DNA of 64,000 nucleotides from assembly GCA_044374225.1 (NCBI GenBank), contig JBILOX010000006.1, positions 12,861 to 76,860 of the forward strand, written 5' to 3'. A program made the position numbers and the translations under genes. The DNA comes from Crocinitomicaceae bacterium. Lineage in GTDB: Bacteria; Bacteroidota; Bacteroidia; Flavobacteriales_D; Crocinitomicaceae. The notes under the pieces were generated by a model. The model was not told the origin of the DNA and did not search any database. It saw only the letters and a list, made by a program, of their open reading frames with translations. Shown one piece after another: positions 15,402 to 44,530 of the stretch. The first letter of the stretch is position 1. Every line of letters starts with the position of its first letter.

Positions 15402-16163
15402 ATGCGACTATATCTGAACGAAAAAGAATACATTGAAACGAATGAACCTTTGGATCTTTCCATTGGTTTGCAAGCAGGAGAAGGAAATTTAAGAGCTTGG
15501 TATGTGAATCCTCCAACTTTTGAACCTGTTCGTGCTAATGGTTTTATTGGAAGCGTAAAAGAGGGTGGTGGTGTAAACTTTCGCGATGTGTTTTTTAACC
15601 CACACGGACATGGTACGCATACAGAATGCCATGGTCACATTACACCTGAAGTTGTTTCCGTTAATCAAAAGTTACGCTCGTATTTTTTTAAAGCAAGAGT
15701 GGTTTCCGTTCAACCAGAAATTTTGGAAAATGGTGATGAATTAATAACAAAAAATCTGTTCGCGGAAAAAATTGACGATTCACCCTTCGAAGCTTTGATT
15801 ATTCGAACACTTCAAAATTCGTTTGATAAAACTTCCAAAAATTATTCTGACACCAATCCACCTTATTTGGACTTATCCGTTATGGAAATTATTGAAAAGC
15901 ATGATATTCAACATTTATTAGTCGATATGCCTTCTGTTGACAGGGAATCTGATGAGGGTAAATTGGCCTTTCACCACGCATTTTGGAATGTTCCCGAAAA
16001 TCCGAATGACAAAACGATCACTGAATTGATTTATGTTAAAGATGAAATCATAGATGGGTTATACATTTTAGAAATGCAAATGGCTCCTTTTGAGAATGAT
16101 GCGAGTCCTAGTCGCCCTGTTCTTTACAAAATACAGGGTAGGGAAAAGTTCCGCAGGATTTGA
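15402..16163 (+). CDS. Putative cyclase / arylformamidase-family protein
   Basis: 253 aa. The motif HGHGTHTECHGH resembles the HxGTHxDxPxH metal-binding signature of the putative cyclase (kynurenine formamidase-like) family. The last six codons and the TGA stop (EKFRRI*) are supplied by the palindromic repeat at 16145. Confidence 0.65.
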   Translation: MRLYLNEKEYIETNEPLDLSIGLQAGEGNLRAWYVNPPTFEPVRANGFIGSVKEGGGVNFRDVFFNPHGHGTHTECHGHITPEVVSVNQKLRSYFFKARVVSVQPEILENGDELITKNLFAEKIDDSPFEALIIRTLQNSFDKTSKNYSDTNPPYLDLSVMEIIEKHDIQHLLVDMPSVDRESDEGKLAFHHAFWNVPENPNDKTITELIYVKDEIIDGLYILEMQMAPFENDASPSRPVLYKIQGREKFRRI

Positions 16164-16197
16164 AAGTTCTGCAGGATTTGAAATCCTGCGGAACTTT
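16145..16197 (+). repeat. Palindromic junction repeat, copy 1 (one extra left half-site plus a ~29-35-nt palindrome followed by a T-run)
   Basis: aaagttccgcaggatttga / aagttctgcaggatttgaaatcctgcggaactttttt. Same family as the copies at 21725, 23257 and 24819. The stem plus T6 resembles an intrinsic terminator. Confidence 0.9.
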
Positions 16198-16831
16198 TTT
16201 CCACTATTTCTCCAACGTTCTAAATCTAAAAGTACTTTACGATTCATTTTCTATAATAATTTGGATGTTACATTACATTATTTATCCGTCTAAAAACACA
16301 AAGTAAAGGCAAATTATTTTTTTACTTCTGATTAGAAAAAAATCAAACCACAGAGTAAACGGAGGATGCAGAGATGAATTAACAACTAAAAAAGTAATTT
16401 TTTTTTGTTTGCTTCTTTTGTGAAAATGTATTTGATTCACTTTGACAAACTAAGGTATTTAAAAAAAAAATGTTTTTTTTCTCCTTTAACTCTTTGATCC
16501 TCTGCGGTAAAAACAACATAATCTTCTGTTTTATTTTTCTAATTATTGTAATCGAAAAGGATACAAGAAAATTGGTTCTCCCAATACTTATGTTAGAAAA
16601 TGAACAAAATTTCAAACTGCAAACTGATTGTACTACCTTGATTTTTCTTTGCACCGATGATGGAAAATTCTATCTGAGGTGGAATCTTGCGAGCCAGATG
16701 CGCGAGAAAGTAGAATTGTCACTAATGAAATGAATCTATTTCTTTTGGTTGAAAGCAATTGCAAAAAAAAATGTTTGCAAAATGTTTAATGTAATCGGGA
16801 CAAATCTCCTTCTCACTCTACTTAGTGGTAT

Positions 16832-17314
16832 ATGCATTTAGAAAAACTGAGAAAATTCATTCATTTGGTGGAGCGCAAGCAGACGGGAAAACCTGCTGAT
16901 GTTGCAAAGATATTAGGCGTTTCGGAGCGAATGATTTACAATTACACCAATTTTATTCGCAAAGAGTTGAATGCTCCCATTGTGTGGAATAACTTCAAGC
17001 AAAGCTATTTGTTTGCTGAAAGTGGCGTTTTGATTTGGAAATACAATAAAAATCATTCTATTGAACAAACAGATGCTGTATTTAATAACAAGCAACTGGC
17101 AACCTTGAACCGCATTTATTTGGGAATTAAACAAAACAATATCGTTTCTGCCGCTCAGTTTGCAAAGCAACTTGATATATCAGAACGCAGTTTTTTTAAT
17201 TATTTAAACGTGCTTAAAAACGAATTTCAGTGCCCTTTAATTTTTGACAAAAGCAGCAACAGCTACCAATTCAAACAAACTGGAAATTTGAACTTAAAAT
17301 GGCAAGCAAAATAA
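16832..17314 (+). CDS. Transcriptional regulator made of two tandem HTH modules
   Basis: 160 aa with a clear internal duplication: GKPADVAKILGVSERMIYNYTNFIRKELNAPIVWNNFKQSYLF versus VSAAQFAKQLDISERSFFNYLNVLKNEFQCPLIFDKSSNSYQF. The modules are HTH_11 / YafY-N-terminal-like. Confidence 0.75.
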   Translation: MHLEKLRKFIHLVERKQTGKPADVAKILGVSERMIYNYTNFIRKELNAPIVWNNFKQSYLFAESGVLIWKYNKNHSIEQTDAVFNNKQLATLNRIYLGIKQNNIVSAAQFAKQLDISERSFFNYLNVLKNEFQCPLIFDKSSNSYQFKQTGNLNLKWQAK

Positions 17315-17370
17315 TTTTTAGACTGCAAAGTGGTTGCAGTTGATTGATTTAAAATTGCAAAACCAAAAAA

Positions 17371-17425
17371 GACTTACTGCTGATTTCAGTAAGAGCGAAA
17401 CCCGAAAAGCTGGAGAGTAAGGGGG
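17371..17425 (+). repeat. Conserved 55-nt leader motif, copy 1 (possible cis-regulatory RNA)
   Basis: gacttactgctgatttcagtaagagcgaaacccgaaaagctggagagtaaggggg, about 90% identical to 27760-27815. It contains the hairpin cttactg/cagtaag and a second gtaag that could pair alternatively. It ends 25 nt upstream of the ATG at 17450. Confidence 0.7.
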
Positions 17426-17449
17426 AAATTGTTAATTAAATAAAAAAAG

Positions 17450-18001
17450 ATGCTGGAAATTTTACGAATTGCAATTAAGAATATTAACGAAAAATATTTT
17501 TTCAGAAAGGAACGTGATTTTTCTCACGAATTATACCATCAAATACGATTACAAAAGCTACCACTTGATACAGAAGTAACTTGCGAACATCCCAAAAGAA
17601 GATTCTCACATAGTGATACAATTTTTGAAGATCCGCTAGTTAAGCGTTATTTCTTCGCTGATGAAATCGATGAAGCAAAAAAGATTTTTCGATATCCAGA
17701 CTTGCTGATTCATGAGTTTGAAAATAGAACCCAACAATTGCTGGCGGTTGAAATAAAAAAACAATTTAATGTATCCCAAATTAAACGGGATTTGGCGAAA
17801 CTTATAGTTTATTGCAGAGGGCGCTTGAGATACAAAAACGGGGTGTTAATTATTACTCAACAAGCAAATACCAGACGAATAATTGAAGTGCGCGACATTA
17901 GAGAAATGCTTAGGAAATATCCCGAAGTAGAAATTTGGACGGTTTGTCCTGAAAGAATTGATGTTTATAATTCAATAACTATTAATAACCAAAATCAATA
18001 A
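17450..18001 (+). CDS. Hypothetical protein with PD-(D/E)xK nuclease-like motifs
   Basis: 183 aa. FRYPDLLIHEF ... LLAVEIKKQF gives D-(x17)-E-x-K with plausible beta-strand context, and an upstream acidic helix is present (FSHELYHQI). The stop lies 3 nt before the next start codon. Confidence 0.6.
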   Translation: MLEILRIAIKNINEKYFFRKERDFSHELYHQIRLQKLPLDTEVTCEHPKRRFSHSDTIFEDPLVKRYFFADEIDEAKKIFRYPDLLIHEFENRTQQLLAVEIKKQFNVSQIKRDLAKLIVYCRGRLRYKNGVLIITQQANTRRIIEVRDIREMLRKYPEVEIWTVCPERIDVYNSITINNQNQ

Positions 18002-18003
18002 CA

Positions 18004-21000
18004 ATGAAAAAAATAATTTTATTATTATTTACTGGAATATGTCTAATTTCTTTCGGTCAGCAGTTTAAAGCGGATTTAACTTTTAACACTGGAATTGGTT
18101 TTGACCAAGGTGTGACAGACATAATAACACAACAAGACGGAAAAATAATTGTTGGAGGAAGGTTTGAATTATATGGAATGAATACAACGTATACTAGACG
18201 TATAGCACGTTTGAATTCAAATGGTTCACTTGATAATACATTCAATACTGGATCTGGATTTAACAATGACGTAACATCTTTAGCCATTCAGACTGATGGT
18301 AAGATAGTTGTTGGAGGTGAGTTTTCATCTTTCAATGGAATAGCAAGAAATCGTATTGCACGTTTGAATAATGACGGATCACTTGATACCACGTTCAATC
18401 CGGGTTCAGGATTTTTTAACGGATTTGATTTCTGTAGTGTCTATTCTATTAGTATTCAGTCTGACGATAAGTTAATTGTTGGAGGTGGGTTTTCTTCTTT
18501 CAATGGGGTATCAAGAAAATGTATTGCACGTTTGAATAATGACGGTTCCCTTGATGCCACGTTCAATCCGGGTTCAGGATTTTTTAACCAATTTGATTTC
18601 TGTAATGTCTCTTCTACTAGTATTCAGTTTGATGGTAAGTTAATTGTTGGAGGTGGGTTTTCATCTTTCAATGGTATAGGAAGAAATAATATCTTACGTT
18701 TGAATAGTGATGGTTCACTGGATAATACATTCAATCCTGGTAGTGGATTTGATACAGAGGTGAGTTCCACTGCAATACAGTCTGATGGAAAATTAATTGT
18801 TGGAGGTGGGTTTACGTCATTCAACGGAATATCAAGAAACGGCATTACGCGATTGAATTCTGATGGATCAATAGACAATTCTTTTAATATTGGTTCTGGT
18901 TGCAGTGGATCAATACCTTCGGTTTTATCTTTAGCAATTCAGACAGATGGAAAGATTTTAATAGGTGGCTTATTTACATCATTCAATGGAATTAATATTA
19001 AAAGTATTGCAAGATTAAATATTAATGGAACTCTAGATAATTCATTCAATACAGGGACAGGCTTTATTGATTCAAATAACGGTCCTGGTTTTATTTCATC
19101 AATTTTAACATTATCTGATGATAAATTTGTTGCTACTGGTGAATATTCTAGTTTTAATGGAGTTAATAGAAATAAAATTTCAAGAATAATTGATTGTAGT
19201 TCTAATTCATCAAATAATATAGCAAATGTCACGGTTTGCGATTTAACAGTTATCCAAATTGGAAATCAAAATTATGCCACATCGAATAGCTATACATGGC
19301 CATTAAATGGAGAAACCTATTATGAGACTGGTCAATACAATACAAATATTACAATTAATTCTGTTGGATGTGATTCTGTCAATACACTAGACTTAAATTT
19401 TCATCAAAATTGGCGAGAAACTTCAATATTAGCCTGTTATTTAGATACTTTTTATATTGATGGATATGGTTATATTTCAAATCAGTCTGGATATTTCTTT
19501 GCTTATTCAAATCAACCGGCATTATACGGTTGTGACTCTTTGGTTATATATGATTTAACCTCAATTTCGCCTATTTATAACTCCTTTAATGTATCTATTT
19601 GTCCCGGTTCAAGTTATACTTGGAATGGTCAGCAGTATAATTCGGATGGTCAATTCCAACAAACTTTTTCAAGTTTAATAACTGGTTGTGATAGTATTGT
19701 AACTTTGAATCTTTCATATATCTTACCAGTTTATACATCATTTAACGTATCAATATGTCCTAGCTCAAGTTATATTTGGAATGGCCAACAATATAATTCA
19801 CCTGGGCAATATCAGCAATCTTTTTCAAGTTTCCTAACAGGTTGTGATAGTATTTCAACATTGAATCTTTCTTTTGTACCAAATAATTTCAACCCAACCT
19901 TCTCAAGCGCTCAACAATTGTACACTGCTCCTCCATTTGCTGTGCAGTTTACCAATTCAACGGCCAATCCTTCCAATTATTCATTTACATGGGATTTCGG
20001 AGATGGTACAACATTGGCATCTAACAATGCAACGGTTTTTCATCAGTATTTGTACAATGGACAATATACACTTTCATTGATTGCTACTAGCAACACAACA
20101 GGTTGTTCCGATACTACTACTCTTTCTGATTATATTTTCTGTACGGGTGGTGTGAGTTGTACGCATGTAGCAACAATTAATCAAACGAGTCCACAACAAG
20201 CGTGTCAAGGAACACCACTTTGGTTGTCGTGTAATAACGATCCTTCATTTACATACCAATGGAGAAGAAATGGTGTAACTATTCCAGGAAATAACAACGA
20301 CAGTTTGGCTGTAACACAATCAGGCACTTATTCTGTAATAATTTCGGTAAACAATTGTCCAATTACTTCAGGAGATGTGGTGGTAACAATTTTTTCTGCT
20401 CCATCAACTCCGATTATTACTTCTTCAGGAGCAATTCAACCATGTGTGGGAGGTTCGGTTACTTTGAATGCCGGAAGTTACACTACTTACAACTGGTCAA
20501 CAGGAGCAACAACACAAAGTATCAATGTTAACTCTTCAGGAACTTACTCGGTTTCTGTAACTGGAGCTAATGGTTGTTCGGCTTCTTCTACTCCATTTAA
20601 TGTAAATGCTTCTTTTGTTGCGCCTCCACAAGTTTGTATCGTTGGAATGGATTCATTAACAAACGAAAACAGAATCGTTTGGGAAAAACCGTTGACTTTG
20701 GGTATTGATTCATTCTACGTTTATAAAGAAAGTAATGTATCCAATGTTTACACAAAAATCGGCGCAACAGATTACAATCAATTAGCAGTTTTCTTAGATG
20801 CTAATTCAAATCCTGCTGTTCAAGCCTATCGTTATAAAATCTCAGCTTTAGATACATGTGGAACTGAATCAAACGTTGGAGATTTTCACAAAACCATACA
20901 CTTAACTATTAACCAAGGAGTTGGGAATTCTTGGAATTTAATTTGGAGTCATTATGAAGGTTTAACTTTTGGAAGTTATAGAATTTACAGGGGAACGAGC

Positions 21001-21432
21001 TTATCAAATATGGCTCTTTTGACAACTATCCAAAGTAATTTGAATTCATATACAGATTTAACTCCACCAACTGGACCAGTATTTTACCAAATTGAGGTTG
21101 TAAATCCTAATAATTGTGATCCAACTAAAATAATGAATTATGGTCTTTCAAAGTCTAATATTGTAGATAATGGAGTAAGTGGAATAAGTGAGGAAGTATT
21201 GTCAACAATAAATGTTTATCCGAACCCAACCAATGATAAATTTACTCTGAATGTTTCAAACGATTTGTTAGGAAAAGGATATGTAATCACTGATTTTTCT
21301 GGAAGAATAATTTCTCAAGGAAAAATTAATTCATTGATTCAAACCATAGATGTTCAGGAAATTTCTAAAGGTGCGTATTTCTTACAAATTGATAAATCAA
21401 CTACAAAAGCAATTAAAATTATCAAACAATAA
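18004..21432 (+). CDS. Large secreted multidomain protein: beta-propeller-type ~60-aa repeats, PKD domain, Ig/Fn3-like region, T9SS type A C-terminal sorting domain
   Basis: Signal peptide MKKIILLLFTGICLISFG. About 7 repeats of DGSLDxxFNxGSGF...IQxDGKxxVGGxFxSFNGxxRNxIxRLN (delta-60 / DUF5122-like). Two near-identical ~52-aa CxxSSYxWNGQQYNS...GCDSxxTLNLS repeats. PKD motif WDFGDGT. The C-terminus INVYPNPTNDKFTLNV...GAYFLQI...IKIIKQ is typical of Por/T9SS type A CTDs. Confidence 0.9.
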   Translation: MKKIILLLFTGICLISFGQQFKADLTFNTGIGFDQGVTDIITQQDGKIIVGGRFELYGMNTTYTRRIARLNSNGSLDNTFNTGSGFNNDVTSLAIQTDGKIVVGGEFSSFNGIARNRIARLNNDGSLDTTFNPGSGFFNGFDFCSVYSISIQSDDKLIVGGGFSSFNGVSRKCIARLNNDGSLDATFNPGSGFFNQFDFCNVSSTSIQFDGKLIVGGGFSSFNGIGRNNILRLNSDGSLDNTFNPGSGFDTEVSSTAIQSDGKLIVGGGFTSFNGISRNGITRLNSDGSIDNSFNIGSGCSGSIPSVLSLAIQTDGKILIGGLFTSFNGINIKSIARLNINGTLDNSFNTGTGFIDSNNGPGFISSILTLSDDKFVATGEYSSFNGVNRNKISRIIDCSSNSSNNIANVTVCDLTVIQIGNQNYATSNSYTWPLNGETYYETGQYNTNITINSVGCDSVNTLDLNFHQNWRETSILACYLDTFYIDGYGYISNQSGYFFAYSNQPALYGCDSLVIYDLTSISPIYNSFNVSICPGSSYTWNGQQYNSDGQFQQTFSSLITGCDSIVTLNLSYILPVYTSFNVSICPSSSYIWNGQQYNSPGQYQQSFSSFLTGCDSISTLNLSFVPNNFNPTFSSAQQLYTAPPFAVQFTNSTANPSNYSFTWDFGDGTTLASNNATVFHQYLYNGQYTLSLIATSNTTGCSDTTTLSDYIFCTGGVSCTHVATINQTSPQQACQGTPLWLSCNNDPSFTYQWRRNGVTIPGNNNDSLAVTQSGTYSVIISVNNCPITSGDVVVTIFSAPSTPIITSSGAIQPCVGGSVTLNAGSYTTYNWSTGATTQSINVNSSGTYSVSVTGANGCSASSTPFNVNASFVAPPQVCIVGMDSLTNENRIVWEKPLTLGIDSFYVYKESNVSNVYTKIGATDYNQLAVFLDANSNPAVQAYRYKISALDTCGTESNVGDFHKTIHLTINQGVGNSWNLIWSHYEGLTFGSYRIYRGTSLSNMALLTTIQSNLNSYTDLTPPTGPVFYQIEVVNPNNCDPTKIMNYGLSKSNIVDNGVSGISEEVLSTINVYPNPTNDKFTLNVSNDLLGKGYVITDFSGRIISQGKINSLIQTIDVQEISKGAYFLQIDKSTTKAIKIIKQ

Positions 21433-21456
21433 ACAATTTTTATTATAGTTTAGTTT

Positions 21457-21491
21457 AAATCCCATCAGCTTCGGTTGGTGGGATTTTTTTT
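21457..21491 (+). terminator. Intrinsic terminator (13-bp stem, UUCG loop, T-run) after the 1142-aa gene
   Basis: aaatcccatcagc-ttcg-gttggtgggattt followed by T8. This is the first part of the ~230-bp 3'-flank module. Confidence 0.75.
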
Positions 21492-21567
21492 ATATTGTTT
21501 TTTGAGAAATTTCAGATTATTTCAAAAACCTAGACCCCAATCAAAAAACAATTTCGATTATATAATG

Positions 21568-21684
21568 GATAAATGGTTTAAACCATTTTTTATATGTATT
21601 CATTTCATCATAGGGGAGGTTTTAAAACCTCCCCTATGATAAATCACCAAATAATTCAATAACCATTTCAATGGTTTGAGGTTG
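21568..21684 (+). repeat. Hairpin module, copy 1
   Basis: taaatggtttaaaccatt palindrome, then a perfect 17-bp-arm palindrome atcataggggaggtttt/aaaacctcccctatgat (21607-21640), then aaccatttcaatggtttgaggttg. The flanks are homologous to 23388-23505. Confidence 0.9.
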
Positions 21685-21724
21685 TTCATTTAATTCGTGC
21701 CAACGAAATACAGTTTCGGTTAAT

Positions 21725-21807
21725 AAAGTTCCGCAGGATTTGAAACGTAAAGTTCCGCAGGATTTCAAATGTAAAGTTCCGCAGGATTTGAAATCCTGCG
21801 GAACTTT
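21725..21807 (+). repeat. Palindromic junction repeat, copy 2 (two 24-bp left half-site units plus a 35-nt perfect palindrome)
   Basis: aaagttccgcaggatttgaaacgt | aaagttccgcaggatttcaaatgt | aaagttccgcaggattt-g-aaatcctgcggaacttt. Confidence 0.95.
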
Positions 21808-21829
21808 ACTGAAATCACAAAATAAATGT

Positions 21830-21837
21830 TATATTTG
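21830..21837 (+). promoter_or_regulatory. Candidate -7 box (TATATTTG) for the ATPase gene
   Basis: Matches TAnnTTTG. It lies 23 nt after the palindrome and 30 nt upstream of the ATG at 21868. Confidence 0.45.
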
Positions 21838-21867
21838 TGTAAATAATCACATTTTACATACTTATAT

Positions 21868-23178
21868 ATGGAAAGAGACCTACAACTTCAATTAATTAAA
21901 TGGAAAAACAAAACCGAGAGGTTACCATTAATTCTTCAAGGAGCGAGACAAGTTGGTAAAACCTATCTTATGCGTTGGTTTGGAGAAAATGCCTTTTCAC
22001 AATTTATTTACTTCAACTTTGACGAACGTCCAGAGTTAAAAGATTTTTTTCAAAAAAATAAAGATATACATCGAATCCTTGAGTCGTTTTCGCTTATCAG
22101 TGGTAAAGAAATAAATAGCGAAACATTGATAATTTTAGATGAAATCCAAGAATGTCCAGAGGCTTTGAATACCTTGAAATATTTTGCAGAACAAAAACCT
22201 GAAATTCCAATTATATGTGCTGGCTCACTTTTGGGTATATTGTTAAATTCAGGTAATTCTTTTCCTGTTGGGAAGGTTGAGTTTTTAACGCTTTATCCAA
22301 TGACATTTCGAGAAGTATTACCTAATTGGAGTAATTCTTTATCGAAGTATGTAGAGCAATTAGATGCACTAACTCCCATTCCTGACTATTTTTTTAATGA
22401 TTTATTACATCATTTCAAAAAATACATGATTACAGGAGGAATGCCGGCAATTGTTAAATCCTTTAACGACTCGAATACATTTGAAAATACAGACGAAACC
22501 TTAAACAATCTTATTCTTTCGTACAAAGGTGATTTTGCGAAACATCCAATTATGACAAACGTTGCTAAAATTGGCGAAGTGTTTAATTCGTTGCCCGCAC
22601 AACTTGCGAGAAAAAACAAAAAATTCATTTATCAATTAATTCGAACGGGAGCAAGAGCAAGAGAATATGAAGATGCAATTCAATGGTTGATAAATGCAGG
22701 ATTAGTATATCAAGTGAAATTAAATACAAAGCCATCATTACCACTAAGCGCTTATGAAGATCAAAGTGCATTTAAATTATATGCTTTAGACGTGGGAATT
22801 ATAAGAAACTTAGCTAAACTTTCACCAAGTGTTTTTTTAGAAGGAAATCGCCTTTTTTCTGAGTTTAAAGGTGCGTTGATAGAAAATTACATCCTACAAA
22901 GTTTGGTTGCTCAATTAAAAACTCCTCCTAGATATTGGACATCTGGAAATACTGCTGAAATTGACTTTTTAATTCAAATTGAAAATGAAATTATTCCAAT
23001 CGAAGTGAAGAGCGATGAAAATGTTAAAAGTAGAAGTCTCTCGTTATATAATGAAAAGTTTAATCCTTCATTAAGAATACGGTATTCATTGAAAAATTTA
23101 CAATATAGAGATGGCTTGTTGAATATTCCTCTTTTTCTAGCAGATTACACCATAGAAATGATTCGACGGGTTAAATAG
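21868..23178 (+). CDS. AAA+ ATPase with C-terminal DUF4143 / restriction-endonuclease-like domain
   Basis: 436 aa. Walker A is GARQVGKT and Walker B is LIILDEIQ. The C-terminal AEIDFLIQIENEIIPIEVKSDENVKS is typical of the AAA_14 + DUF4143 family. Confidence 0.85.
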   Translation: MERDLQLQLIKWKNKTERLPLILQGARQVGKTYLMRWFGENAFSQFIYFNFDERPELKDFFQKNKDIHRILESFSLISGKEINSETLIILDEIQECPEALNTLKYFAEQKPEIPIICAGSLLGILLNSGNSFPVGKVEFLTLYPMTFREVLPNWSNSLSKYVEQLDALTPIPDYFFNDLLHHFKKYMITGGMPAIVKSFNDSNTFENTDETLNNLILSYKGDFAKHPIMTNVAKIGEVFNSLPAQLARKNKKFIYQLIRTGARAREYEDAIQWLINAGLVYQVKLNTKPSLPLSAYEDQSAFKLYALDVGIIRNLAKLSPSVFLEGNRLFSEFKGALIENYILQSLVAQLKTPPRYWTSGNTAEIDFLIQIENEIIPIEVKSDENVKSRSLSLYNEKFNPSLRIRYSLKNLQYRDGLLNIPLFLADYTIEMIRRVK

Positions 23179-23256
23179 AAAATGAGCAAATGGTTTTTAA
23201 CGATTAAATTGACAGACAAAATAAAGGATTCAGGTAAGAAAAATTCTATTGAAATT

Positions 23257-23307
23257 AAAGTTCAGCAGGATTTGAAATCCTGCGGAACTTTCAAATCCTG
23301 CGGAACT
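23257..23307 (+). repeat. Palindromic junction repeat, copy 3 (palindrome followed by an extra right half-site, so inverted polarity relative to the other copies)
   Basis: aaagttcagcaggatttgaaatcctgcggaacttt + caaatcctgcggaact. Confidence 0.9.
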
Positions 23308-23337
23308 CCCGTTCGCTTCGGTTGGTGGGATTTTTTT
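23307..23337 (+). terminator. Degenerate copy of the UUCG-loop terminator hairpin
   Basis: tcccgttcgc-ttcg-gttggtggga followed by T7. Homologous to 21457-21491 but with more G-U pairs and mismatches. Confidence 0.4.
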
Positions 23338-23387
23338 GTCGCCAAATTTTGGTTAGTTGGTATTTTTTGGGAAATAAAAATTTTCGA

Positions 23388-23505
23388 GGGTAAATGGTTA
23401 AAACCATTTTATGTACGTGTGGTTTTCTCCTTAGGGTCGGATTTAAATCCGACCCTAAGGAGAAACACCAAAAAATTCATCAACCATTTCAATGGTTTGA
23501 GATTG
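23388..23505 (+). repeat. Hairpin module, copy 2
   Basis: taaatggttaaaaccatt, then a perfect 20-bp-arm palindrome ttctccttagggtcggattt/aaatccgaccctaaggagaa (23425-23464), then aaccatttcaatggtttgagattg. Same architecture as copy 1, but the central hairpin has a different sequence. Confidence 0.9.
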
Positions 23506-23610
23506 GAGTTTACTAAACTTGATATGAAATTATATTCAATAGTATATTGAGGAATCTAATTTCTTTGTAGGTAATGATAATGTTTTAGCAAAGAAATAAA
23601 ATCACAAAAA

Positions 23611-23628
23611 GTAAACAGATTTGTTTAC
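23611..23628 (+). promoter_or_regulatory. Candidate operator (inverted repeat GTAAACA-N4-TGTTTAC) upstream of the HigA-like gene
   Basis: Perfect 7-bp inverted repeat ending 16 nt upstream of the -7 box, roughly where a -33 element would be expected. This fits autoregulation by the HTH antitoxin. Confidence 0.4.
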
Positions 23629-23643
23629 TAAATAAAAATTTTT

Positions 23644-23651
23644 TACCTTTG
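23644..23651 (+). promoter_or_regulatory. Candidate -7 box (TACCTTTG) for the HigA-like/AbiEii-like pair
   Basis: Matches TAnnTTTG and lies 16 nt upstream of the ATG at 23668. Confidence 0.5.
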
Positions 23652-23667
23652 ATAAAAAACAAAGAAT

Positions 23668-24174
23668 ATGTTGCCTGAAATTTCAAAGATAAAAGGAATT
23701 CATCCTGGAGCTATTTTAAAAAGAGAACTCAAAAATCAAAGCCTGAAAAGTAGTGAATTAGCCAAATCAGTTAATGAACACAAGCAAACTATCAGTGCAA
23801 TTCTCAATGAAAAAAGAAGTGTTAATCCTGGACTTTCAATCAAACTGGCAAAACATTTCGGAGTAGCATCGGATTACTTTATGCATGTTCAAGCCAGTTA
23901 TGATATCCAAATAGAATTACAAAAAGACGCTGAAAAAAGTACCCCAGACCTCAAGAAGATACGGAAAATAGTATTTTGGGATACTGATTTCAACCTATTG
24001 GATTGGGAAAAACAAAAATCTGCTATTATCAAGCGTATCTTCGAAAGGGGAAATGATACAGAGATTAAGGAGATTATTTCTTTTTATGGACTTTCAACTG
24101 TGAAACAAACAATTGATGCTACTAAAAATAATTTTCTTCCTGCTTTCAATGAAAATGTAAAAAAGTACTTATAG
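23668..24174 (+). CDS. HigA-type XRE-HTH antitoxin-like protein fused to a C-terminal domain of unknown function
   Basis: The N-terminus IHPGAILKRELKNQSLKSSELAKSVNEHKQTISAILNEKRSVNPGLSIKLAKHFG is typical of HigA addiction-module antidotes. The C-terminal ~80 aa (IVFWDTDFNLLDWEKQKSAIIKRIFERGNDTEIKEIISFYG) is an extra domain. Confidence 0.75.
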   Translation: MLPEISKIKGIHPGAILKRELKNQSLKSSELAKSVNEHKQTISAILNEKRSVNPGLSIKLAKHFGVASDYFMHVQASYDIQIELQKDAEKSTPDLKKIRKIVFWDTDFNLLDWEKQKSAIIKRIFERGNDTEIKEIISFYGLSTVKQTIDATKNNFLPAFNENVKKYL

Positions 24175-24189
24175 ATAATACAGCATAAA

Positions 24190-24837
24190 TTGAATACACT
24201 TCACAGAAATACCGTTTCAGAATCGCTTTGGGTTTCATTAAATAAACTCATGAAAATTGAAGAATTAAAGAGTTTTCGATTGGTTGGTGGTACTTCTTTA
24301 AGTTTGCAAATTGGACACAGAATGTCCGTCGATATTGATTTGTTTACTGATGCACCTTATGATTCTATCGATTTCGACCGAATTGATGAAGTGATATGTT
24401 CAACCTTTCCAACAGTTGAAATGGGATATGGAGGAAATCACTCTATGGGTAAATCTTACTTTGTAGGAACATCAAAGGAAGACCTCGTCAAATTAGATTT
24501 TTTTTACACAGATTCATTTGTCTTTCCAGTACTTATTGAGCAGGATATTCGATTTGCAAGATTAGAAGAAATTGCGGCAATGAAACTAGAAGTGATAGGT
24601 AACAATGGAAGAAAAAAAGACTTTTGGGACCTTCATGAATTAATGGATCATTTTTCTCTAAATCAAATGATTGAATTTTATGAAAAACGCTATCCGTATA
24701 GCCTTACGAAAAAAGAAATAATATCCCAACTTACCTTTTTTGATAATGCAGACGAAGATTTTGATCCAATTTGCCTTCGTAATAAATATTGGGAGTTGAT
24801 AAAATTAGATTTTGAGGAAAAGTTCCGAAGGATTTGA
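24190..24837 (+). CDS. Nucleotidyltransferase, AbiEii/AbiGii toxin-like (DUF1814) family
   Basis: TTG start. FRLVGGTSLSLQIGHRMSVDIDLFTD matches the GGTAL...HR.S.DIDLF NTase signature of AbiEii-like proteins. The N-terminal LHRNTV segment argues for the TTG start rather than the internal ATG. The last six codons and the stop (EKFRRI*) come from the junction repeat. Confidence 0.75.
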   Translation: MNTLHRNTVSESLWVSLNKLMKIEELKSFRLVGGTSLSLQIGHRMSVDIDLFTDAPYDSIDFDRIDEVICSTFPTVEMGYGGNHSMGKSYFVGTSKEDLVKLDFFYTDSFVFPVLIEQDIRFARLEEIAAMKLEVIGNNGRKKDFWDLHELMDHFSLNQMIEFYEKRYPYSLTKKEIISQLTFFDNADEDFDPICLRNKYWELIKLDFEEKFRRI

Positions 24838-24925
24838 AACGCAAAGTTCCGAAGGATTTGAAACGCAAAGTTCAGCAGGATTTGAAACGTAAAGTTCCGC
24901 AGGATTTGAAATCCTGCGGAACTTT
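24819..24925 (+). repeat. Palindromic junction repeat, copy 4 (three 24-bp left half-site units plus a 35-nt perfect palindrome)
   Basis: aaagttccgaaggatttgaaacgc x2 | aaagttcagcaggatttgaaacgt | aaagttccgcaggattt-g-aaatcctgcggaacttt. Confidence 0.95.
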
Positions 24926-25039
24926 CTGCTAAAAGGATTTTTTATTCAAACTTGAAAAAACTTGCACTATAGATTTAATAGGCGACTGCAAAAATAGTTC
25001 ACTGTATTTTGTTTCTTTTGCAAGACTATATTTATAGAT

Positions 25040-27388
25040 ATGCGAAGTTGGTTTCTTTTGTTTCTGTTTTTAATTGTTTCAGCTGGTTTCGCAACTGCCA
25101 CTGTTTCTGAGAAATTGTTTCTTACAAAGAAAAGTGAACTTACCTTTTTGATAAATAGAGGTAGCTTGAATACTGCACTTTTGAAATGCGAAAAGCTTTT
25201 AGCTAGTAATTTAAGTAAGGATCAGCGTTATCAAATTTTAACCACTCAATCTAAGATTTATTTTTGGACAGAAAATTTATATGAATTTAATAGGACAGCA
25301 AAATCGGCTTATGAAATAAAAAAGAAAAATTTGGCAATTTACAAAGCGTATTATTATTCGCAGAAAGCAGCATTTTTTCATTATCATATTTTAGCTGATT
25401 CTGCTGTCTACTATTCTGACAAATCAATAGAACTACTTAGTAAAAACTGGCAATTTCGAACAAAAGTACCTTTTCATTTTATTTATCAAATTTATGGAAC
25501 GGTTTTTCTTTATAGAAATATAAATGGAAAATTTTATTCAAACTCTGAATTTGATTGCAATAATAGATTACCCTTGATTTTAAACTATCAGGATTCTGCT
25601 TTAAAGCATATCAATCAAGTCCCGCATTTTAAACAGGAGGAAGCAATTATACATCGATCAAAAGGAAATCGGATAATGGATCTTGTAGGTTATAGTGTTC
25701 GTAACAGCAAATCGGATTTTAATAATTATGCTTTTCAGATAAGTAAAGCAAACCAAGCAATTAATGAATATCGAATGGCTTTAAAGGTTTTAGACAAAAA
25801 TGAACATACCTTATCAAATGGAATCAAAAGTTTAATTGCTTTGGCTTTTTATTGTACAAATAGAGAGCATGAAGGGGATGCGATTTTGTGGCCAATTATT
25901 AAGAAGTTGAAGAAAGATAAAATAAAGGATATAAATTCGGAGAATATCCAATTATTGAATGTCCTGCAAACATTTTCTCACAGCATTATTTCTAAAAATA
26001 AATTTGATTCAAGAATCTATTCCGTTATCCGAATTTATAAATCCCTACGTGATGATTGGTATTGGTATTTAATTTCAAAAAACAAAAATTACCTCGATTC
26101 ATACGGAGAATCTCCTACATCCATGCTTTCCATTATCTATATTTGGCTCAACAATTTAGAAATTGAAAATTTAAATTTAAATTATAATTTGAGGTACAGT
26201 GCACTCGATAATTACATTTATTATAGTAAAACCTTAGATTTTCTTGTTAACAAAAATGGTCTTTCATTATCAAAAAAAGTGGAGATAAAAGCTTCAATCT
26301 TAACACTTCTTAATCTTTATAAAATCCAAAAGAAACTTAGTGAAAAAGATGCGGTAATGGTTCAGATTTTTGCAGCAATGAAAAAAGAGAAATATCTCTT
26401 AATTACAAAAAAAGCGCTTTATGTAGATACTTTTAAAAGACTACCATTAACACATTATACAAGTTTACAAATTGATGGATTAACGGAATTTAAAAGAAAA
26501 GGATTTGAAAATTTTTCAAGTTCTCCATTTTGCTATATTTTAAAAAAAAATAAAATTTCAAAGCTGTATGTAGCAATTGATATTCATGAAAATTTTGATT
26601 TGATGATTATGGACACATTAGGTGATTCATTTGAAGAATTAAACTATTTTAAAAGTAAAATTAATGTTATTAAAGTATATAATCCAATTGATTTTTTTTC
26701 AATATATCCTTCAACTGATTTACTAATTAAAGAAAACATAGCTCCATTTTATACTGACATTAATAGTAAAGATAGATTGCCTTTTTCACAATCGATTTTT
26801 ACTAATTTCAATAGAAAAAGAATAAAACCTTTACGATTTATAAATTTAAATGATAACGGAATAGCTCATATTATTGGTCACGGAAATTTGAAATTGGAAA
26901 AAGACAGACAATCTTATACCAACTATTTGCAATCAAATCAATTGAAAAAAGATTTAATAGGAAACCAGCGAATTAAAACTGACTTATTTATTTTAAATTT
27001 ATGTTTTGGTGCATACAAAAGAAGTATGTTTTATCCAGATCGTGATTTACAAAATCAACTAATTTCTAAAGGTGCTAAAGCTGTAATTGCCTCACCTTAC
27101 CAAACTATAGATCAAAGTTCAGCCTATATTTTTGAAAAATTTTATCACTATCTTTTCAAAGGAGAAACAGTAGAAGATGCATTACAGCTAGCAAAATTAG
27201 ACTATTTAAAAACGCATACAGGAATGGAGGCTCATCCACAATATTGGTCAACCTACGAACTTACCTCCAACGTCAAAGACCTACGTTTAGCCCTTGATCC
27301 AATACCAGATAAATCGTGGCAAGCGTATTTAGTGCTATTAGTTTTGATTGCAATAGTGTTGTGGTTTTATTTGTATTGGGAGGATTGA
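25040..27388 (+). CDS. CHAT-domain (caspase-like) protease with N-terminal signal peptide, helical-repeat region and C-terminal TM anchor
   Basis: 782 aa. Signal-like MRSWFLLFLFLIVSAGFATA. CHAT His/Cys dyad context GIAHIIGHGN ... TDLFILNLCFGAY, followed by GAKAVIASPYQTIDQSSAYIFEKFYHYLFKGETVEDALQLAKLDYLK. C-terminal hydrophobic WQAYLVLLVLIAIVLWFYLYW. Confidence 0.8.
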   Translation: MRSWFLLFLFLIVSAGFATATVSEKLFLTKKSELTFLINRGSLNTALLKCEKLLASNLSKDQRYQILTTQSKIYFWTENLYEFNRTAKSAYEIKKKNLAIYKAYYYSQKAAFFHYHILADSAVYYSDKSIELLSKNWQFRTKVPFHFIYQIYGTVFLYRNINGKFYSNSEFDCNNRLPLILNYQDSALKHINQVPHFKQEEAIIHRSKGNRIMDLVGYSVRNSKSDFNNYAFQISKANQAINEYRMALKVLDKNEHTLSNGIKSLIALAFYCTNREHEGDAILWPIIKKLKKDKIKDINSENIQLLNVLQTFSHSIISKNKFDSRIYSVIRIYKSLRDDWYWYLISKNKNYLDSYGESPTSMLSIIYIWLNNLEIENLNLNYNLRYSALDNYIYYSKTLDFLVNKNGLSLSKKVEIKASILTLLNLYKIQKKLSEKDAVMVQIFAAMKKEKYLLITKKALYVDTFKRLPLTHYTSLQIDGLTEFKRKGFENFSSSPFCYILKKNKISKLYVAIDIHENFDLMIMDTLGDSFEELNYFKSKINVIKVYNPIDFFSIYPSTDLLIKENIAPFYTDINSKDRLPFSQSIFTNFNRKRIKPLRFINLNDNGIAHIIGHGNLKLEKDRQSYTNYLQSNQLKKDLIGNQRIKTDLFILNLCFGAYKRSMFYPDRDLQNQLISKGAKAVIASPYQTIDQSSAYIFEKFYHYLFKGETVEDALQLAKLDYLKTHTGMEAHPQYWSTYELTSNVKDLRLALDPIPDKSWQAYLVLLVLIAIVLWFYLYWED

Positions 27389-27445
27389 TTTTTTTTTAAG
27401 AAAGTATTAAAAGTTATATTGTTTTATTGATACTAAAAGCGTCTA

Positions 27446-27550
27446 ATACCAATTTACTTGTTAAATGACGTAATTGAAAATCTATCTGGTATAATGCCGA
27501 GTTAGTTTTCAACGAGTATTCTACACGACAATTGAAAACAACTTCGGTAT
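27446..27550 (+). mobile_element. 105-bp MITE-like element (family A), copy 1
   Basis: ataccaatttacttgttaaatgacg...gaaaacaacttcggtat. Its reverse complement is identical (105/105, checked base by base) to 34809-34913. Short imperfect terminal inverted repeats (ATACC...GGTAT) and an internal gttttcaa/ttgaaaac hairpin. No coding capacity. Confidence 0.9.
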
Positions 27551-27759
27551 AACAATTACTTGATTTAATCTAGAAGAAAACATTCTCCGATTAAAAATTC
27601 ATGCTGTTTTATAAGTGTTTCAAATCACAATCGTTTTTTTATGGACATATTTATTGATTAGAAATAATTTAAAAAGATCTTTCATCTTACATGATAAGCA
27701 AAATATCACTTAAAGTGCAAGATTGTTTCAGTTAATTAACGTTTCTTTGCATACTACTA

Positions 27760-27815
27760 GACTTACTACTGATTTTTCAGTAAGAGCGAAACTCGTAAAG
27801 CTGGAGTGTAAGGAG
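27760..27815 (+). repeat. Conserved 55-nt leader motif, copy 2
   Basis: gacttactactgatttttcagtaagagcgaaactcgtaaagctggagtgtaaggag. It ends 39 nt upstream of the ATG at 27854. A partial third copy (ctggagtgtgggaa) lies at 30051-30064. Confidence 0.7.
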
Positions 27816-27853
27816 TATTAAAAATAAATTTTATTTAATTTTAAAAAATAACA

Positions 27854-28528
27854 ATGAAAAAAACAATTTTAATTCTAGGTGTCGTGTTCCTGGGTGGAAT
27901 AACATTAAACAGCTGTGGAGGATCAGAAGAAAAGAATTCAGCTGAAAACAAAACAAAAAAAGGCACTGCAACAGTGAAAAATGAAAAAGTAGAAGAAGAG
28001 TCAAAACCAATAGTTAGTTTGTCAAAAAAAGAGGCCCTCGATCGAATGAAAGCTTTTTTAAAAGATAATCGAAAAAAATACAGTGATTTCGGCGAGGTAC
28101 AGGACATGTCTGCAGTTGGAGGTAATTATTCTAAAGATGGGGCACTCGACTATTTTTATACAGTAGATTTCTATCCCGGTGGTGATTTTATCTATCCTTC
28201 TCATTTTTTCTATGAATCCGATCAGGATAAAATTCGTGAGCTTTCTATAAATAAGGCTACCGATTTTATGAAAAGCATCGACGTAAAAGAAATTATAGAA
28301 GGAAAGCTCATCGGATCGGCTAATTTGTGGAATGCATTTAGTGGAGAGCATGTTGCTTGGAGATCCGTGAATGCTGAGTTTACAATTGATGGAAACAAAA
28401 TATATTTCGATAATAAATACATCTCAAAATTTAAAAAAGGAGAAAAGGAAATTGCTAGTGAATTAAAAAAAATGGAAGAAGATATGATGAATGAATCAGA
28501 TGCATATAACTCTGAATTAGCAGAATAA
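27854..28528 (+). CDS. Hypothetical lipoprotein
   Basis: 224 aa. Lipobox-like LGGITLNSC followed by a charged low-complexity linker (GGSEEKNSAENKTKKG). Confidence 0.75.
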   Translation: MKKTILILGVVFLGGITLNSCGGSEEKNSAENKTKKGTATVKNEKVEEESKPIVSLSKKEALDRMKAFLKDNRKKYSDFGEVQDMSAVGGNYSKDGALDYFYTVDFYPGGDFIYPSHFFYESDQDKIRELSINKATDFMKSIDVKEIIEGKLIGSANLWNAFSGEHVAWRSVNAEFTIDGNKIYFDNKYISKFKKGEKEIASELKKMEEDMMNESDAYNSELAE

Positions 28529-28554
28529 ATTATTAAATATTTAAAAAAGTGAAT

Positions 28555-28896
28555 ATGAAATACATTATTACACTTACATTTTTCCTTTCTACACAACTAT
28601 TGTTTTCTCAAATGGAAAATGGCAGCTATAAATTCTCAAATAACAATATTACATTGGAGTTTATTATCGAAGATGATGGTTGGGTTATTTCATCTGGGAA
28701 AGTATCAAATAACCAATCGAAAATAAGCTTTGTGGGAAAAGGTGAATATCGCAGCAAAGATGACTACGAATGGTATGAATTTCAAACGAACGAATGTAAT
28801 TACTCTTTTAGTCTCCCAACAAATAAATTGACGCTAGAAATATTCGACTGTAAAAACGGAAGTAAATCAACTGAAGTTATTTTAGAAAGAAAATAA
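28555..28896 (+). CDS. Small secreted hypothetical protein
   Basis: An ATG at 28555 (MKYIITLTFFLSTQLLFSQ signal peptide) is preferred over the GTG at 28549 used in the ORF track. Confidence 0.65.
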   Translation: MKYIITLTFFLSTQLLFSQMENGSYKFSNNNITLEFIIEDDGWVISSGKVSNNQSKISFVGKGEYRSKDDYEWYEFQTNECNYSFSLPTNKLTLEIFDCKNGSKSTEVILERK

Positions 28897-28972
28897 TTTT
28901 CAAATAGCTTAAGTTAAAAAATAGAGTATACCGAAAATCTTTAAGAGTAGGTAAAATATCAAAAATGAAAAA

Positions 28973-29482
28973 ATGAAAAAAACGATTACAATGATTGGCG
29001 CACTAATGTTGCTTTCAATTTCAATGGTAAGTTGCAGCGACGCTAATTCAGCTGAAAAAACTGACAAAGGGGCTGTTAATGAAAAGAAGGATACAACAGC
29101 TACGAAGGAAACAAATGTTGAAGTTGAAGATAAAATTGAGCCAGGAAAAATACTAAAAGTCACATTGACTTATTCTGAATCTACGCTTGACAACGAAGAT
29201 TTAGGAAATCTAACAGAAACTCTTAAAAATGGTTCTGAATTATACTTGAATGGATGCAATACTCAAAAAATTAAAAACATTAAGATTGAAGGGTCAGGTA
29301 ACCATTTGACACTGTCTATAAAATCATCTGATGGTAAAGTTATTTTTGAGAAAAAGGATTTTTCAATCGACAAATCGATCACATTAACAGAAAAAGATAA
29401 AATTACTCTTGGTTCTATTACAATCACTCAAGAAAACAAAAACTTGTTCAAAAATGCAACTTTAATTAGTGGATGTAATTAG
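28973..29482 (+). CDS. Hypothetical lipoprotein
   Basis: 169 aa. MKKTITMIGALMLLSISMVSC lipobox, then a linker SDANSAEKTDKG similar to that of the 27854 product. Confidence 0.75.
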   Translation: MKKTITMIGALMLLSISMVSCSDANSAEKTDKGAVNEKKDTTATKETNVEVEDKIEPGKILKVTLTYSESTLDNEDLGNLTETLKNGSELYLNGCNTQKIKNIKIEGSGNHLTLSIKSSDGKVIFEKKDFSIDKSITLTEKDKITLGSITITQENKNLFKNATLISGCN

Positions 29483-29526
29483 ACATTCAAAAATGAATTT
29501 AATTCAAATTCTAGCAAAAACAAAAT

Positions 29527-29928: not shown

Positions 29929-29962
29929 TTTAAAGAATTCATTTTAGTAAGTAGGTTAGGTT

Positions 29963-30112
29963 AAATCTCATCGGTGTGAGTTGGTAGGATTTATTCGTAT
30001 TGTTTTTTTTGAGAAATTTTAGTTTATTTCAAAGACCAAAACCCCTGAATCTGGAGTGTGGGAATTAATAAGTTGAAAAGAACAATAATTAATTTTCAAC
30101 TAGGTTTGAGGT
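29963..30112 (+). repeat. 3'-flank module, copy 3 (partial and diverged)
   Basis: Hairpin aaatctcatcgg...ttggtaggattt plus a spacer attgttttttttgagaaattttagtttatttcaaagaccaaaacccc homologous to 21457-21538. This is followed by the hairpin gttgaaaa-N13-ttttcaac and taggtttgaggt (compare ggtttgaggttg in copy 1). Confidence 0.75.
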
Positions 30113-44485: not shown

Positions 44486-44530
44486 TTTTCAAGAAGTTTT
44501 TATATGACTTTGCCGCAACGGAAGCAATTA

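Follow-up and report, generated by a model that had tools for sequence, protein, structure and literature searches.

A candidate defence ATPase cassette and its repeat joints in a variable island of a Crocinitomicaceae bacterium

How single-gene defence systems move without a recombinase of their own is an open question. It is raised by a 64,000-nucleotide stretch of DNA from a freshwater Crocinitomicaceae-like bacterium (GenBank assembly GCA_044374225.1, contig JBILOX010000006.1, positions 12,861 to 76,860, forward strand; 'the window' below, with positions counted from its first letter), in which an ATPase gene lies among repeats in an island whose gene content and order vary among related genomes. 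The genes of this island are separated by four types of repeat: a terminator hairpin with its T-run (TERM, and a degenerate copy, TERM'); a spacer, alpha or beta; a module of three hairpins, H1-H2-H3, of types I to III; and arrays of a 17-21-nt unit that end in a 35-bp palindrome. A sequence-only reading of the locus had proposed that a unit bounded by inverted palindrome arrays inserted into the terminator and module and duplicated this target. Comparison with related genomes points to a different account, to which we assign a probability of about 0.6: the ATPase cassette would have arrived by recombination between repeats, not by a transposon jump with target duplication, and the island would be a repeat-joined mosaic.

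Cassette ends and hybrid flanks

The ATPase gives a full-length match to the PADLOC hidden Markov model PDC-S01 (residues 1-428, E 3e-165) and has the AAA_14 plus DUF4143 architecture of that family, its C-terminal DUF4143 domain being of the PD-(D/E)xK type. PDC-S01 is a candidate family, experimentally unvalidated, in which an ATPase is joined to a PD-(D/E)xK nuclease (PMC12988326); the earlier assignment of the gene to the AAA_14/DUF4143 proteins of variable regions, with a nuclease-like C-terminal domain, agrees with this match. By its profile and architecture we classify the gene as a single-gene candidate anti-phage defence cassette in a hypervariable island. The exact protein is found on five metagenome contigs, L001 among them, where the arrangement is that of the window.

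The relatives used for comparison are the Crocinitomicaceae metagenome-assembled genome (MAG) 'bin81' (L012 with L039, and L022), two MAGs labelled Chitinophaga pinensis (L018 and L031), L053, labelled Lishizhenia, and L047. A metagenome scan with the invariant 19-mer of H3 as query added L061, L070, L071/L073 and L075. The gene orders are given in Table 1.

Table 1. Order of genes and repeats in the window and in related loci (A, palindrome array; T9SS, type IX secretion system; HTH, helix-turn-helix; ORF, open reading frame)
Locus	Order
Window	cyclase-A-…-HTH160-orf183-T9SS-TERM-module-A-ATPase-A-TERM'-module-HigA-AbiEii-A-CHAT
L031	HigA-AbiEii-A-ATPase-A-CHAT
bin81 (L039+L012)	module-A-ATPase-A-TERM-CHAT
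L087	orf172-TERM-module-A-ATPase-A
L073	module (H1/H3 fused)-A-ATPase promoter and about 11 codons fused to terminator T-run
L018	T9SS-TERM-module-A-TERM'-(unrelated ORF, other strand)-module-A; no ATPase
L047 and L053	module-A-CHAT; no ATPase
L075	HTH160-…-T9SS-TERM-module-HigA-AbiEii-CHAT; no ATPase

In a three-way alignment of the window, L031 and bin81, the ATPase segment is 92-98% identical from about 21773, in the left core palindrome, to about 23277, in the first right unit, and is unrelated outside these limits. The shared segment measures about 1.45 kb, and similarity stops at the arrays in each context, including L087 and L073, the latter retaining a deleted remnant of the ATPase. 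The point at which the alignment ends shows the palindrome arrays to be the real ends of the ATPase cassette in every context where it was found. The cassette occupies at least four different positions among the genomes compared. The claim of a discrete unit bounded by arrays thus stands, with L031, bin81, L087 and L073 as further cases, and its array boundaries are shared by the copies elsewhere; the claimed duplication of terminator and module does not accompany it in L031 or bin81. The empty site that the same reading suggested looking for exists in L075, which has one terminator plus module and no ATPase. Between the window and bin81 the ATPase DNA is 95% identical and a housekeeping stretch 82%, which fits a recent exchange.

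The core of each array is a perfect 35-bp palindrome with 17-bp arms around a G/C, and its centre base is the same in all four window copies. Extra half-units are added to this core with a period of 24, 18, 17 or 14 nt, F units on its upstream side and R units on its downstream side, and in related genomes they occur on either side of it. The two arrays around the ATPase, which had been described as oppositely oriented, are so in their extra half-units only, the cores all sharing one centre base. Where chance would give 0.01 matches to the 21-nt palindrome unit, the window contains 16, and the folding of the arrays is well beyond that of shuffled sequences (z -5 to -7). In L087 all three units of one array share one G/C variant on both arms; the units of an array therefore evolve in concert. 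The unit is not private to the ATPase, as two more arrays lie at 16145-16197 and 24819-24925, where the ORFs of the cyclase and AbiEii, respectively, end in the first unit (KFRRI*, stop codon included). A hairpin in the linker between module and array was dropped as a candidate (z -0.7 against shuffles), conserved though this linker is in sequence.

A scan of reference genomes for the palindrome unit returned 50 stretches, of which seven were real and the rest mostly single chance matches. All of the real ones are in this island except L022 of bin81, the only array copy found outside it, a single F-R doublet after a housekeeping-type gene; a genome-wide repetitive extragenic palindrome (REP) was rejected on this count. 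The palindrome is absent from viral contigs, and L075, although closely related, has no array, only a half unit in the AbiEii stop region. The F-R doublet is a perfect 35-bp palindrome, but the F unit is not itself a hairpin, so the array differs from a REPIN. Taken together, the arrays behave, in the genomes compared, as a palindromic repeat of low copy number that is specific to the lineage and marks the joints between cassettes.

The spacer between TERM and H1 is of two unrelated types, and the modules fall into subfamilies. Type I modules (the left module of the window, L047, L061 and L071) are 86-96% identical to each other, the left window module being 88-91% identical to the rest; type II modules (the right module of the window, one in L012, two in L018 and one in L075) are 88-96% identical, the right window module being 88-95% identical to those of L075, L018 and L012. 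The left and right modules of the window are only about 76-77% identical. In six other genomes spacer alpha goes with type II (6/6) and spacer beta with type I (5/5); only the window has alpha with I on the left and beta with II on the right. On both sides the diagnostic positions pass from one parent to the other in a stretch of about 30 bp around H1 (21567-21598 and 23388-23419). The swapped pairs and the switch around H1 show, on this comparative evidence, that the 'direct repeat' of the window is a pair of attL/attR-like hybrids from one reciprocal crossover, in or next to the H1 palindrome, between an alpha-II resident and a beta-I incoming element. The state predicted for the resident, T9SS-TERM-alpha-II-HigA, is exactly that of L075, and the right module of the window ends right after H3, where it is joined to the HigA upstream region just as in L075. 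A second crossover in the left module, considered because the connector between H2 and H3 looks like type II, was dropped as a polymorphism of type I, since L061 has the same connector.

The event that we propose would consist of a single recombination, inside or beside H1, between the resident T9SS-TERM-alpha-II-HigA and an element beta-I-array-ATPase-array-TERM'. Its product would be TERM-alpha-I-array-ATPase-array-TERM'-beta-II, a Campbell-type integration of about 1.82 kb made up of module I, linker, array, ATPase, array, TERM' and spacer beta. The incoming DNA may have been a circle, or an equivalent intermediate, cut from a related island. Crossovers would take place at short conserved repeat cores (H1, about 25 bp; the palindrome, 35 bp plus array), and the agent was most likely homologous or short-homology recombination of the host following DNA exchange between related strains. 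Of the other joints, those of the ORF401 cassettes (L061 and L073) lie right after H2 and that of the HigA cassette right after H3, and one in L073 lies between the AATGGTTT word of H1 and that of H3. Two events are plainly illegitimate, namely the truncation of the ATPase inside its ORF in L073 and the chimeric H2 of L061.

The coordinates of all features are collected in Table 2. TERM is the sole strong terminator call in the region, a G+C-rich hairpin (21457-21486) followed by TTTTT directly after the T9SS gene; TERM' has a mutated 5' arm, and its 3' arm and T-run are identical to those of the left copy. The terminator 23-mer has two exact matches in the window against 0 expected. The order of terminator, module, array, ATPase, array, degenerate terminator and module, as listed in the sequence-only reading, was confirmed by reading 21200-23800 and with a repeat finder; each element lies at the coordinates given there and is well beyond what chance would produce.

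Table 2. Features of the window
Feature	Position	Strand	Remarks
GlyRS	13741-15282	-	left edge of island
Variable (defence-type) island, ~15 kb	15402-30300	.	between GlyRS and holA; Pfam, PADLOC, gene order differs among relatives
Cyclase ORF	15402-16163		stop codon supplied by palindrome array
Array F, F, R (18-nt period)	16145-16197	+	supplies cyclase stop codon
T9SS gene	18004-21432		left TERM follows it
TERM, intrinsic terminator hairpin and T-run	21457-21490	+	after T9SS gene; 13-bp stem, -18.4 kcal/mol, z -6.7
Spacer alpha	21491-21566	+	precedes type II module in the other genomes
Left module, type I	21567-21684	+	H1 21571-21588; H2 21604-21643 (GGGGAGG stem); H3 21661-21676
Left array F, F, F (24-nt period) then R	21724-21809	+	core palindrome 21773-21807, left cassette boundary
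ATPase upstream region	21810-21867	+	box TATATTTG at 21830-21837; conserved among 73-78% homologues
ATPase gene	21868-23178	+	Pfam AAA_14 (3.8e-29) and DUF4143 (2.2e-36)
Right array F, R, R (18-nt period)	23257-23309	+	first F unit, right cassette boundary
TERM', degenerate terminator	23304-23337	+	88% to left copy; z -0.5, not called as terminator
Spacer beta	23338-23387	+	precedes type I module in the other contexts
Right module, type II	23388-23505	+	H1 23392-23409; H2 23424-23465 (GGGTCGG stem); H3 23482-23497
HigA-like HTH+DUF6922	23668-24174	+	Pfam, PADLOC
AbiEii	24190-24837	+	toxin-antitoxin pair with HigA-like protein; next cassette after ATPase
Array, four F (24-nt period) then R	24819-24925	+	supplies AbiEii stop codon; site holding ATPase cassette in L031
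CHAT gene	25040-27388		island neighbour right of AbiEii
Third partial, degenerate TERM and spacer-alpha copy	29942-30051	+	78% to 21438-21538; right edge of island
holA	30382-31380	+	right edge of island

The repeats were also considered as a property of the ATPase family, and this was ruled out: the homologues L088-L092, at 73-78% identity, have neither arrays nor modules, which indicates that the repeats belong to the host island and not to the gene family. These homologues share a stretch of about 55 nt upstream of the gene (CACAnAATAA…TAnnTTTGTG…AATCACA…ACTTATA-ATG), found at 21810-21867 in the window, at 3945-4000 and 5318-5375 in L088, in the flanks of 429-1745 in L092 and at about 6625-6715, in window orientation, in L073. 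In L088 and L092 a second copy lies directly 3' of the gene, and the stretch could serve as an operator, or else be what tandem copies have repeatedly left behind. TAnnTTTG is the consensus of the Bacteroidota -7 box; the gene has its own copy right after the left palindrome, as had been noted before, and we take this copy to be a Bacteroidota-type -7 box ahead of the ATPase.

In L088, whose ATPase homologue is 76% identical, a TERM-type hairpin again stands on each side of the gene, one copy good and the other degenerate (3842-3880 and about 5400-5440; …CCCATCAGCCTCGGTTGGTGGGAG TTTTT and …TTCCATCAACCTCGGTTTTTGGGAG), and TERM-type terminators seem to end each cassette in such islands. Downstream of the window ATPase, a 122-aa ORF (23182-23550, +) that appears as a gene in metagenome annotations has no Pfam match; nearly all of it is sequence of the right array, TERM' and the module, and it is unlikely to be a genuine gene.

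The three-hairpin module and RAYT genes

The module is 118 nt long and consists of H1 (AAATGGTTnAAACCATTT), H2, a stem of about 20 bp, and H3 (AACCATTTCAATGGTT). The two window copies fold with z scores of -4.9 and -6.6, and both H1 (two matches in the window against 0.36 expected) and H3 (two against 0.24) are rarely met by chance. Among island copies H1 and H3 are invariant in sequence, and in H2 98.8% of alignment cells are paired, with 8 of 18 pairs compensated. The palindromes are perfect, strand-symmetric and almost free of G-U pairs. Rfam gave no family at gathering score in the window; at E<=1 it returned only generic long-hairpin look-alikes such as miRNA precursors, whose 18-28 bits fall short of thresholds of 42-245. 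In blastn the composite element matched no plasmid or phage. Three matches of the H3 19-mer in viral contigs were set aside as chance, lying inside a coding region.

A covariance model of the module, R1, was built from nine copies. On a marine contig, L065, the model gave an unexpected match away from the H3 19-mer through which the contig had been fetched, and at this place an ORF with a Pfam Y1_Tnp domain (E 2.7e-28) lies between two module-like copies in direct orientation. The protein has about 2,100 homologues; across Bacteroidota identities of 72-93% are seen, and in JGI annotation many of the homologues carry the name RayT, the REP-associated tyrosine transposase (RAYT). Five further RAYT loci (L100, L101/102, L103/104, L105/106 and L107) were then picked by protein homology alone. 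Module matches lie on both sides of the RAYT gene in L100 and likewise in L107, and in L101/102 and L105/106 one module lies directly upstream, ending 12-14 nt before the ATG. With R1 the copies at L100, L101/102 and L105/106 score 52-71 bits, and those of the five loci L065, L100, L101/102, L105/106 and L107 together 32-71 bits. L103/104 has only H2-type hairpin arrays near the RAYT gene: at least three tandem units of about 410-470 bp lie upstream of it (L103:1200-2500 and L104:1-400), each with a hairpin of the CATATAGCCCACGAATTAATT… type, and these form a REP cluster built differently from the module.

In the copies next to RAYT genes H1 and H3 covary too (AACCGTTTCAACGGTT, for example). 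Over the 14-sequence alignment that includes them, 95% of cells are paired and 17 of 31 pairs compensated, with a covariation of 0.447 against at most 0.12 in slid controls, a value that none of 500 shuffles reaches. The foot of H2 carries an invariant TAG…CTA, preceded by A or T and base-paired within the stem. This structural covariation and the position beside RAYT genes show the module, as judged from alignment and location, to be a structured REP-type element whose kin directly flank RAYT (Y1/HUH) genes in five other Bacteroidota lineages. The three-hairpin family flanking RAYT genes in Bacteroidota is previously undelineated. RAYT occurs once per contig in the five loci fetched, among ordinary genes, and the family looks domesticated rather than like a multicopy insertion sequence (IS).

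Four loci of another organism, L058 (7609-7719), L064 (280-390), L063 and L082, match R1 at 33-44 bits: at module spacing, H3 is exact and H1 degenerate, and a hairpin of terminator type with a T-run accompanies them; they were fetched through the H3 19-mer, hence their kinship to the module is uncertain.

REP clusters are known join-points of rearrangements. The module resembles REPs in being a short extragenic hairpin element whose structure is kept more than its sequence, in having subfamilies that differ by complementary stem changes, in lying mostly downstream of genes and clustered with other repeats, and in having copies that flank a single-copy Y1_Tnp gene. It differs in its three-part build, with invariant 16-18-bp palindromes H1 and H3 around a hairpin of about 40 nt, and in the direct, not inverted, orientation of its copies around RAYT. 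It also differs in number, being very low-copy and confined to one island, not present in tens to hundreds of copies across the chromosome. REP and REPIN elements with their RAYT transposase of the Y1 HUH class are known as 'REPtrons' (PMC3116915, PMC3733652, PMC5581495). Classical REPs associated with RAYT have a conserved unpaired GTAG (or CGTC) tetranucleotide at one hairpin end (PMC3733652, PMC5581495), and GTAG REPs linked to RAYT were not reported for Bacteroidetes in a 2013 survey (PMC3733652). The invariant TAG at the foot of the module's H2 recalls this tetranucleotide but is paired in the stem.

Weighing the explanations

A number of observations tell against arrival by recombination between REP-type repeats. 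In L031 the ATPase is 92% identical to that of the window and the flanking toxin-antitoxin genes 94.5%, so that a recent horizontal spread is indicated only by bin81. No filled/empty polymorphism was found within the species, as look-ups of the exact ATPase, HigA-like and HTH160 proteins returned either contigs arranged like the window or short ones broken off at the repeats. The roughly 25 bp of identity in H1 are at the lower limit for RecA-type recombination, and a site-specific enzyme could equally account for junctions placed repeatedly on conserved motifs. Whether the event was an insertion or a deletion is judged from the parsimony of the alpha/beta and I/II combinations. As for the module, much of the H2 covariation among island copies reflects one split between types I and II, and its copy number (two full and one partial copy in 64 kb, all in the island, and five true loci in the metagenome scan) is unlike that of classical REPs. 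Finally, no RAYT (Y1_Tnp) gene was found in the window or in the loci of close relatives, in 763 kb fetched.

It is possible, but in our judgement unlikely, that an enzyme drives the movement. The module-bounded unit would then be a non-autonomous REPtron- or IS200-like element that a RAYT encoded in the genome excises as a circle and inserts in trans at H1 or H2, and the arrays would be sites of a second site-specific activity. The layout module-cargo-module equals the module-RAYT-module of L065, L100 and L107, and the direct orientation of modules around RAYT recurs in five lineages. L065, L100 and L107 resemble the IS200/IS605 family, in which a TnpA Y1 transposase works with subterminal hairpins at both ends, by their hairpin-bearing ends of like orientation on the two sides of a Y1_Tnp gene; in principle, movement in trans is open to any cargo gene enclosed by such a pair of ends. 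Invariant H1 and H3 around an H2 that is conserved in structure only, with its invariant TAG..CTA foot, are as expected of hairpins recognised by a protein; junctions fall on H1, on the H1/H3 fusion of L073 and directly after H2 or H3, and the cassette ends exactly at the palindrome in five contexts. Against these stand the lack of RAYT in any Crocinitomicaceae locus fetched, the low copy number of the module, the in-ORF truncation to a terminator T-run in L073 and the chimeric H2 of L061, and the absence of the palindrome unit (the F unit) from every RAYT locus inspected. RAYT also departs from IS200/IS605 in its high conservation across families, its single occurrence per contig and the lack of TnpB. 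We view as similarly tentative the wider model in which module-cargo-module is a non-autonomous derivative of a Bacteroidota REPtron, and a domesticated RAYT elsewhere in the genome moves defence cassettes between modules, with the arrays as a second layer of joints.

Integrons were also considered. Integron attC and CALIN cassettes (CALIN, clusters of attC sites lacking integron integrases) are single-gene units delimited by palindromic sites, and the island resembles them in its single-gene, same-strand cassettes, toxin-antitoxin genes included, in palindromic sites that vary in sequence and keep their structure, and in the presence of the same cassette at different positions. It differs in that no IntI or other tyrosine recombinase lies nearby (12.8-36 kb scanned), no R''/R' boxes (RYYYAAC/GTTRRRY) are seen by inspection in module or palindrome, the ATPase cassette has its own promoter, and the sites are 35-bp perfect palindromes with tandem half-units. 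Both the integron/attC and the Xer/dif-like readings were rejected, there being no recombinase and no matching core motifs.

That nothing was inserted, the window arrangement being ancestral and L075, L047 and L018 being deletion derivatives formed through the repeats, with loss of the ATPase in some lineages, appears improbable. Deletions do happen, as the ATPase remnant and the H1/H3-fused module of L073 attest; L075 retains only half a palindrome unit at the AbiEii end, and a deletion between the two H1 copies of the window would yield exactly L075. However, all 11 other spacer-module copies, from six genomes, are alpha with II or beta with I, so that the commonest forms would all be recombinants, and L031 has the cassette at AbiEii/CHAT where the window has a single array, which requires gain or movement somewhere.

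We give still less credence to the view that the repeats are mainly 3'-end elements of RNA (terminator, insulator or mRNA stabiliser), the cassette boundaries coinciding with them as gene ends. All elements do lie downstream of genes on the + strand; arrays and modules form very stable folds, and in two cases an array runs over a stop codon. The left TERM has the canonical terminator form, and REPs of other bacteria have such roles (PMC3733652). This view leaves unexplained the reciprocal swap of alpha/beta and I/II, the adjacency to RAYT and the perfect strand-symmetric palindromes, and the left array and module precede the ATPase promoter and do not follow any gene that would be theirs. An RNA role is compatible with the crossover as an addition and not as a replacement; we consider it very likely that the repeats would also serve as 3'-end hairpins (terminator or insulator) between cassettes.

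The original proposal, a transposon-like unit with inverted terminal arrays and a duplicated target of about 230 bp, can practically be set aside: the gene is indeed bracketed by direct copies of terminator plus module and by arrays with outward extra half-units, and an empty site exists, but the two flanks are not copies of one target, their modules being 76-77% alike, from different subfamilies and joined to unrelated spacers in reciprocal combinations, while L018 has a second terminator without the ATPase, the cassette lacks a flanking duplication in L031, bin81 and L087, no transposase was found in the island ORFs scanned, and the orientation of the extra half-units is inconsistent across contexts. 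In relatives, modules also flank genes unrelated to the ATPase (ORF357, ORF401, ORF368 and RAYT genes), an outcome that the sequence-only reading had itself counted as telling against it, and that holds in part.

The surrounding island and its significance

Pfam and PADLOC identify in the island the cyclase, HTH160, orf183, the T9SS protein, the ATPase, the HigA-like/AbiEii pair, CHAT and four unknown ORFs. GlyRS (13.7-15.3 kb) and holA (30.4 kb) enclose all repeat elements (arrays, TERM copies and modules). The island ORFs scanned with Pfam (12.8 to 36 kb) gave no recombinase or transposase domain, and none is listed in the gene calls for the remaining ORFs.

The left end of the island holds HTH160 (16832-17314), a protein of 160 aa with two HTH motifs that is kept at this place in every relative (81-95% identity in close relatives, 46% in L061) and has weak PADLOC matches to the N-termini of WYL/CARF-type regulators. 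It is preceded by 635 bp without an ORF (16198-16831), and it may be a regulator of the island. The T9SS protein (1142 aa) contains in-frame tandem repeats of 168 nt (2.7 copies, 85%, at 18286-18741) and 156 nt (1.9 copies, 80%, at 19574-19871), and its orthologue is 1081 aa long in L018 and 787 aa in L075. Outside the island, a large ORF (146-11266, +) with PKD and CHU_C domains encodes 3706 aa in the window, where it is cut by the window start, and 5445 aa in metagenome gene calls.

On the right, L001, a strain that is 99% identical, departs from the window exactly past the CHAT stop codon (window 27396; L001:9548 onwards) and has another gene set there. Past CHAT, L001, L031 and L075 have MNT/HepT, Fic, a sigma-70 ECF-type (extracytoplasmic function) gene and another palindrome array (L001:12742-12833), and the window has instead four ORFs without a Pfam match (27854-29928). 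The CHAT protein is 36-48% identical among relatives, though the neighbouring genes are 89-96% identical, and over the last 315 nt or so of the gene identity reaches 92% with L031 and is still 77-83% with L047 and L053; from this pattern CHAT would be a mosaic, or would have been replaced as a unit with a conserved 3' end. In bin81 an array (L012:3505-3607), compared with window positions 16197 and 44518, joins the HTH160 side to DNA that is 82% identical to window positions 44518-48935, in inverted relative orientation, which suggests an inversion of about 28 kb with its breakpoint at the palindrome array.

Repeat mosaics of a comparable kind are known elsewhere. The Neisseria intergenic mosaic elements (NIMEs) consist of RS repeats bounded by dRS3 inverted repeats, and the bacterial interspersed mosaic elements (BIMEs) are those of E. 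coli. The repeats of the present island resemble both in forming intergenic mosaics of several repeat types, variable in order and number, that lie at gene 3' ends and are tied to strain-variable regions and rearrangement breakpoints. They differ in that the sequences are unrelated, and the mosaic lies in one island and is linked to a RAYT-type module.

Our analysis demonstrates no new biochemical principle; the comparative series, with an empty site, five filled contexts and hybrid flanks, is unusually clean, and the mechanism is therefore testable. PDC-S01 is one of the commonest candidate defence genes, and here it can be traced through five arrangements and an empty site, with its joints in two kinds of repeat. 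A repeat system with kinship to REP and RAYT appears to act as the joints of a defence-gene cassette array. If the repeats are passive, they would still show cleanly how short structured sequences of this kind direct the mosaicism of an island. If they are active recombination sites, REP-type DNA would serve as cassette joints in defence islands; and if it is true that RAYT moves the cassettes, this would amount to an integron-like, recombinase-free shuffling of immunity genes on REP-type DNA.

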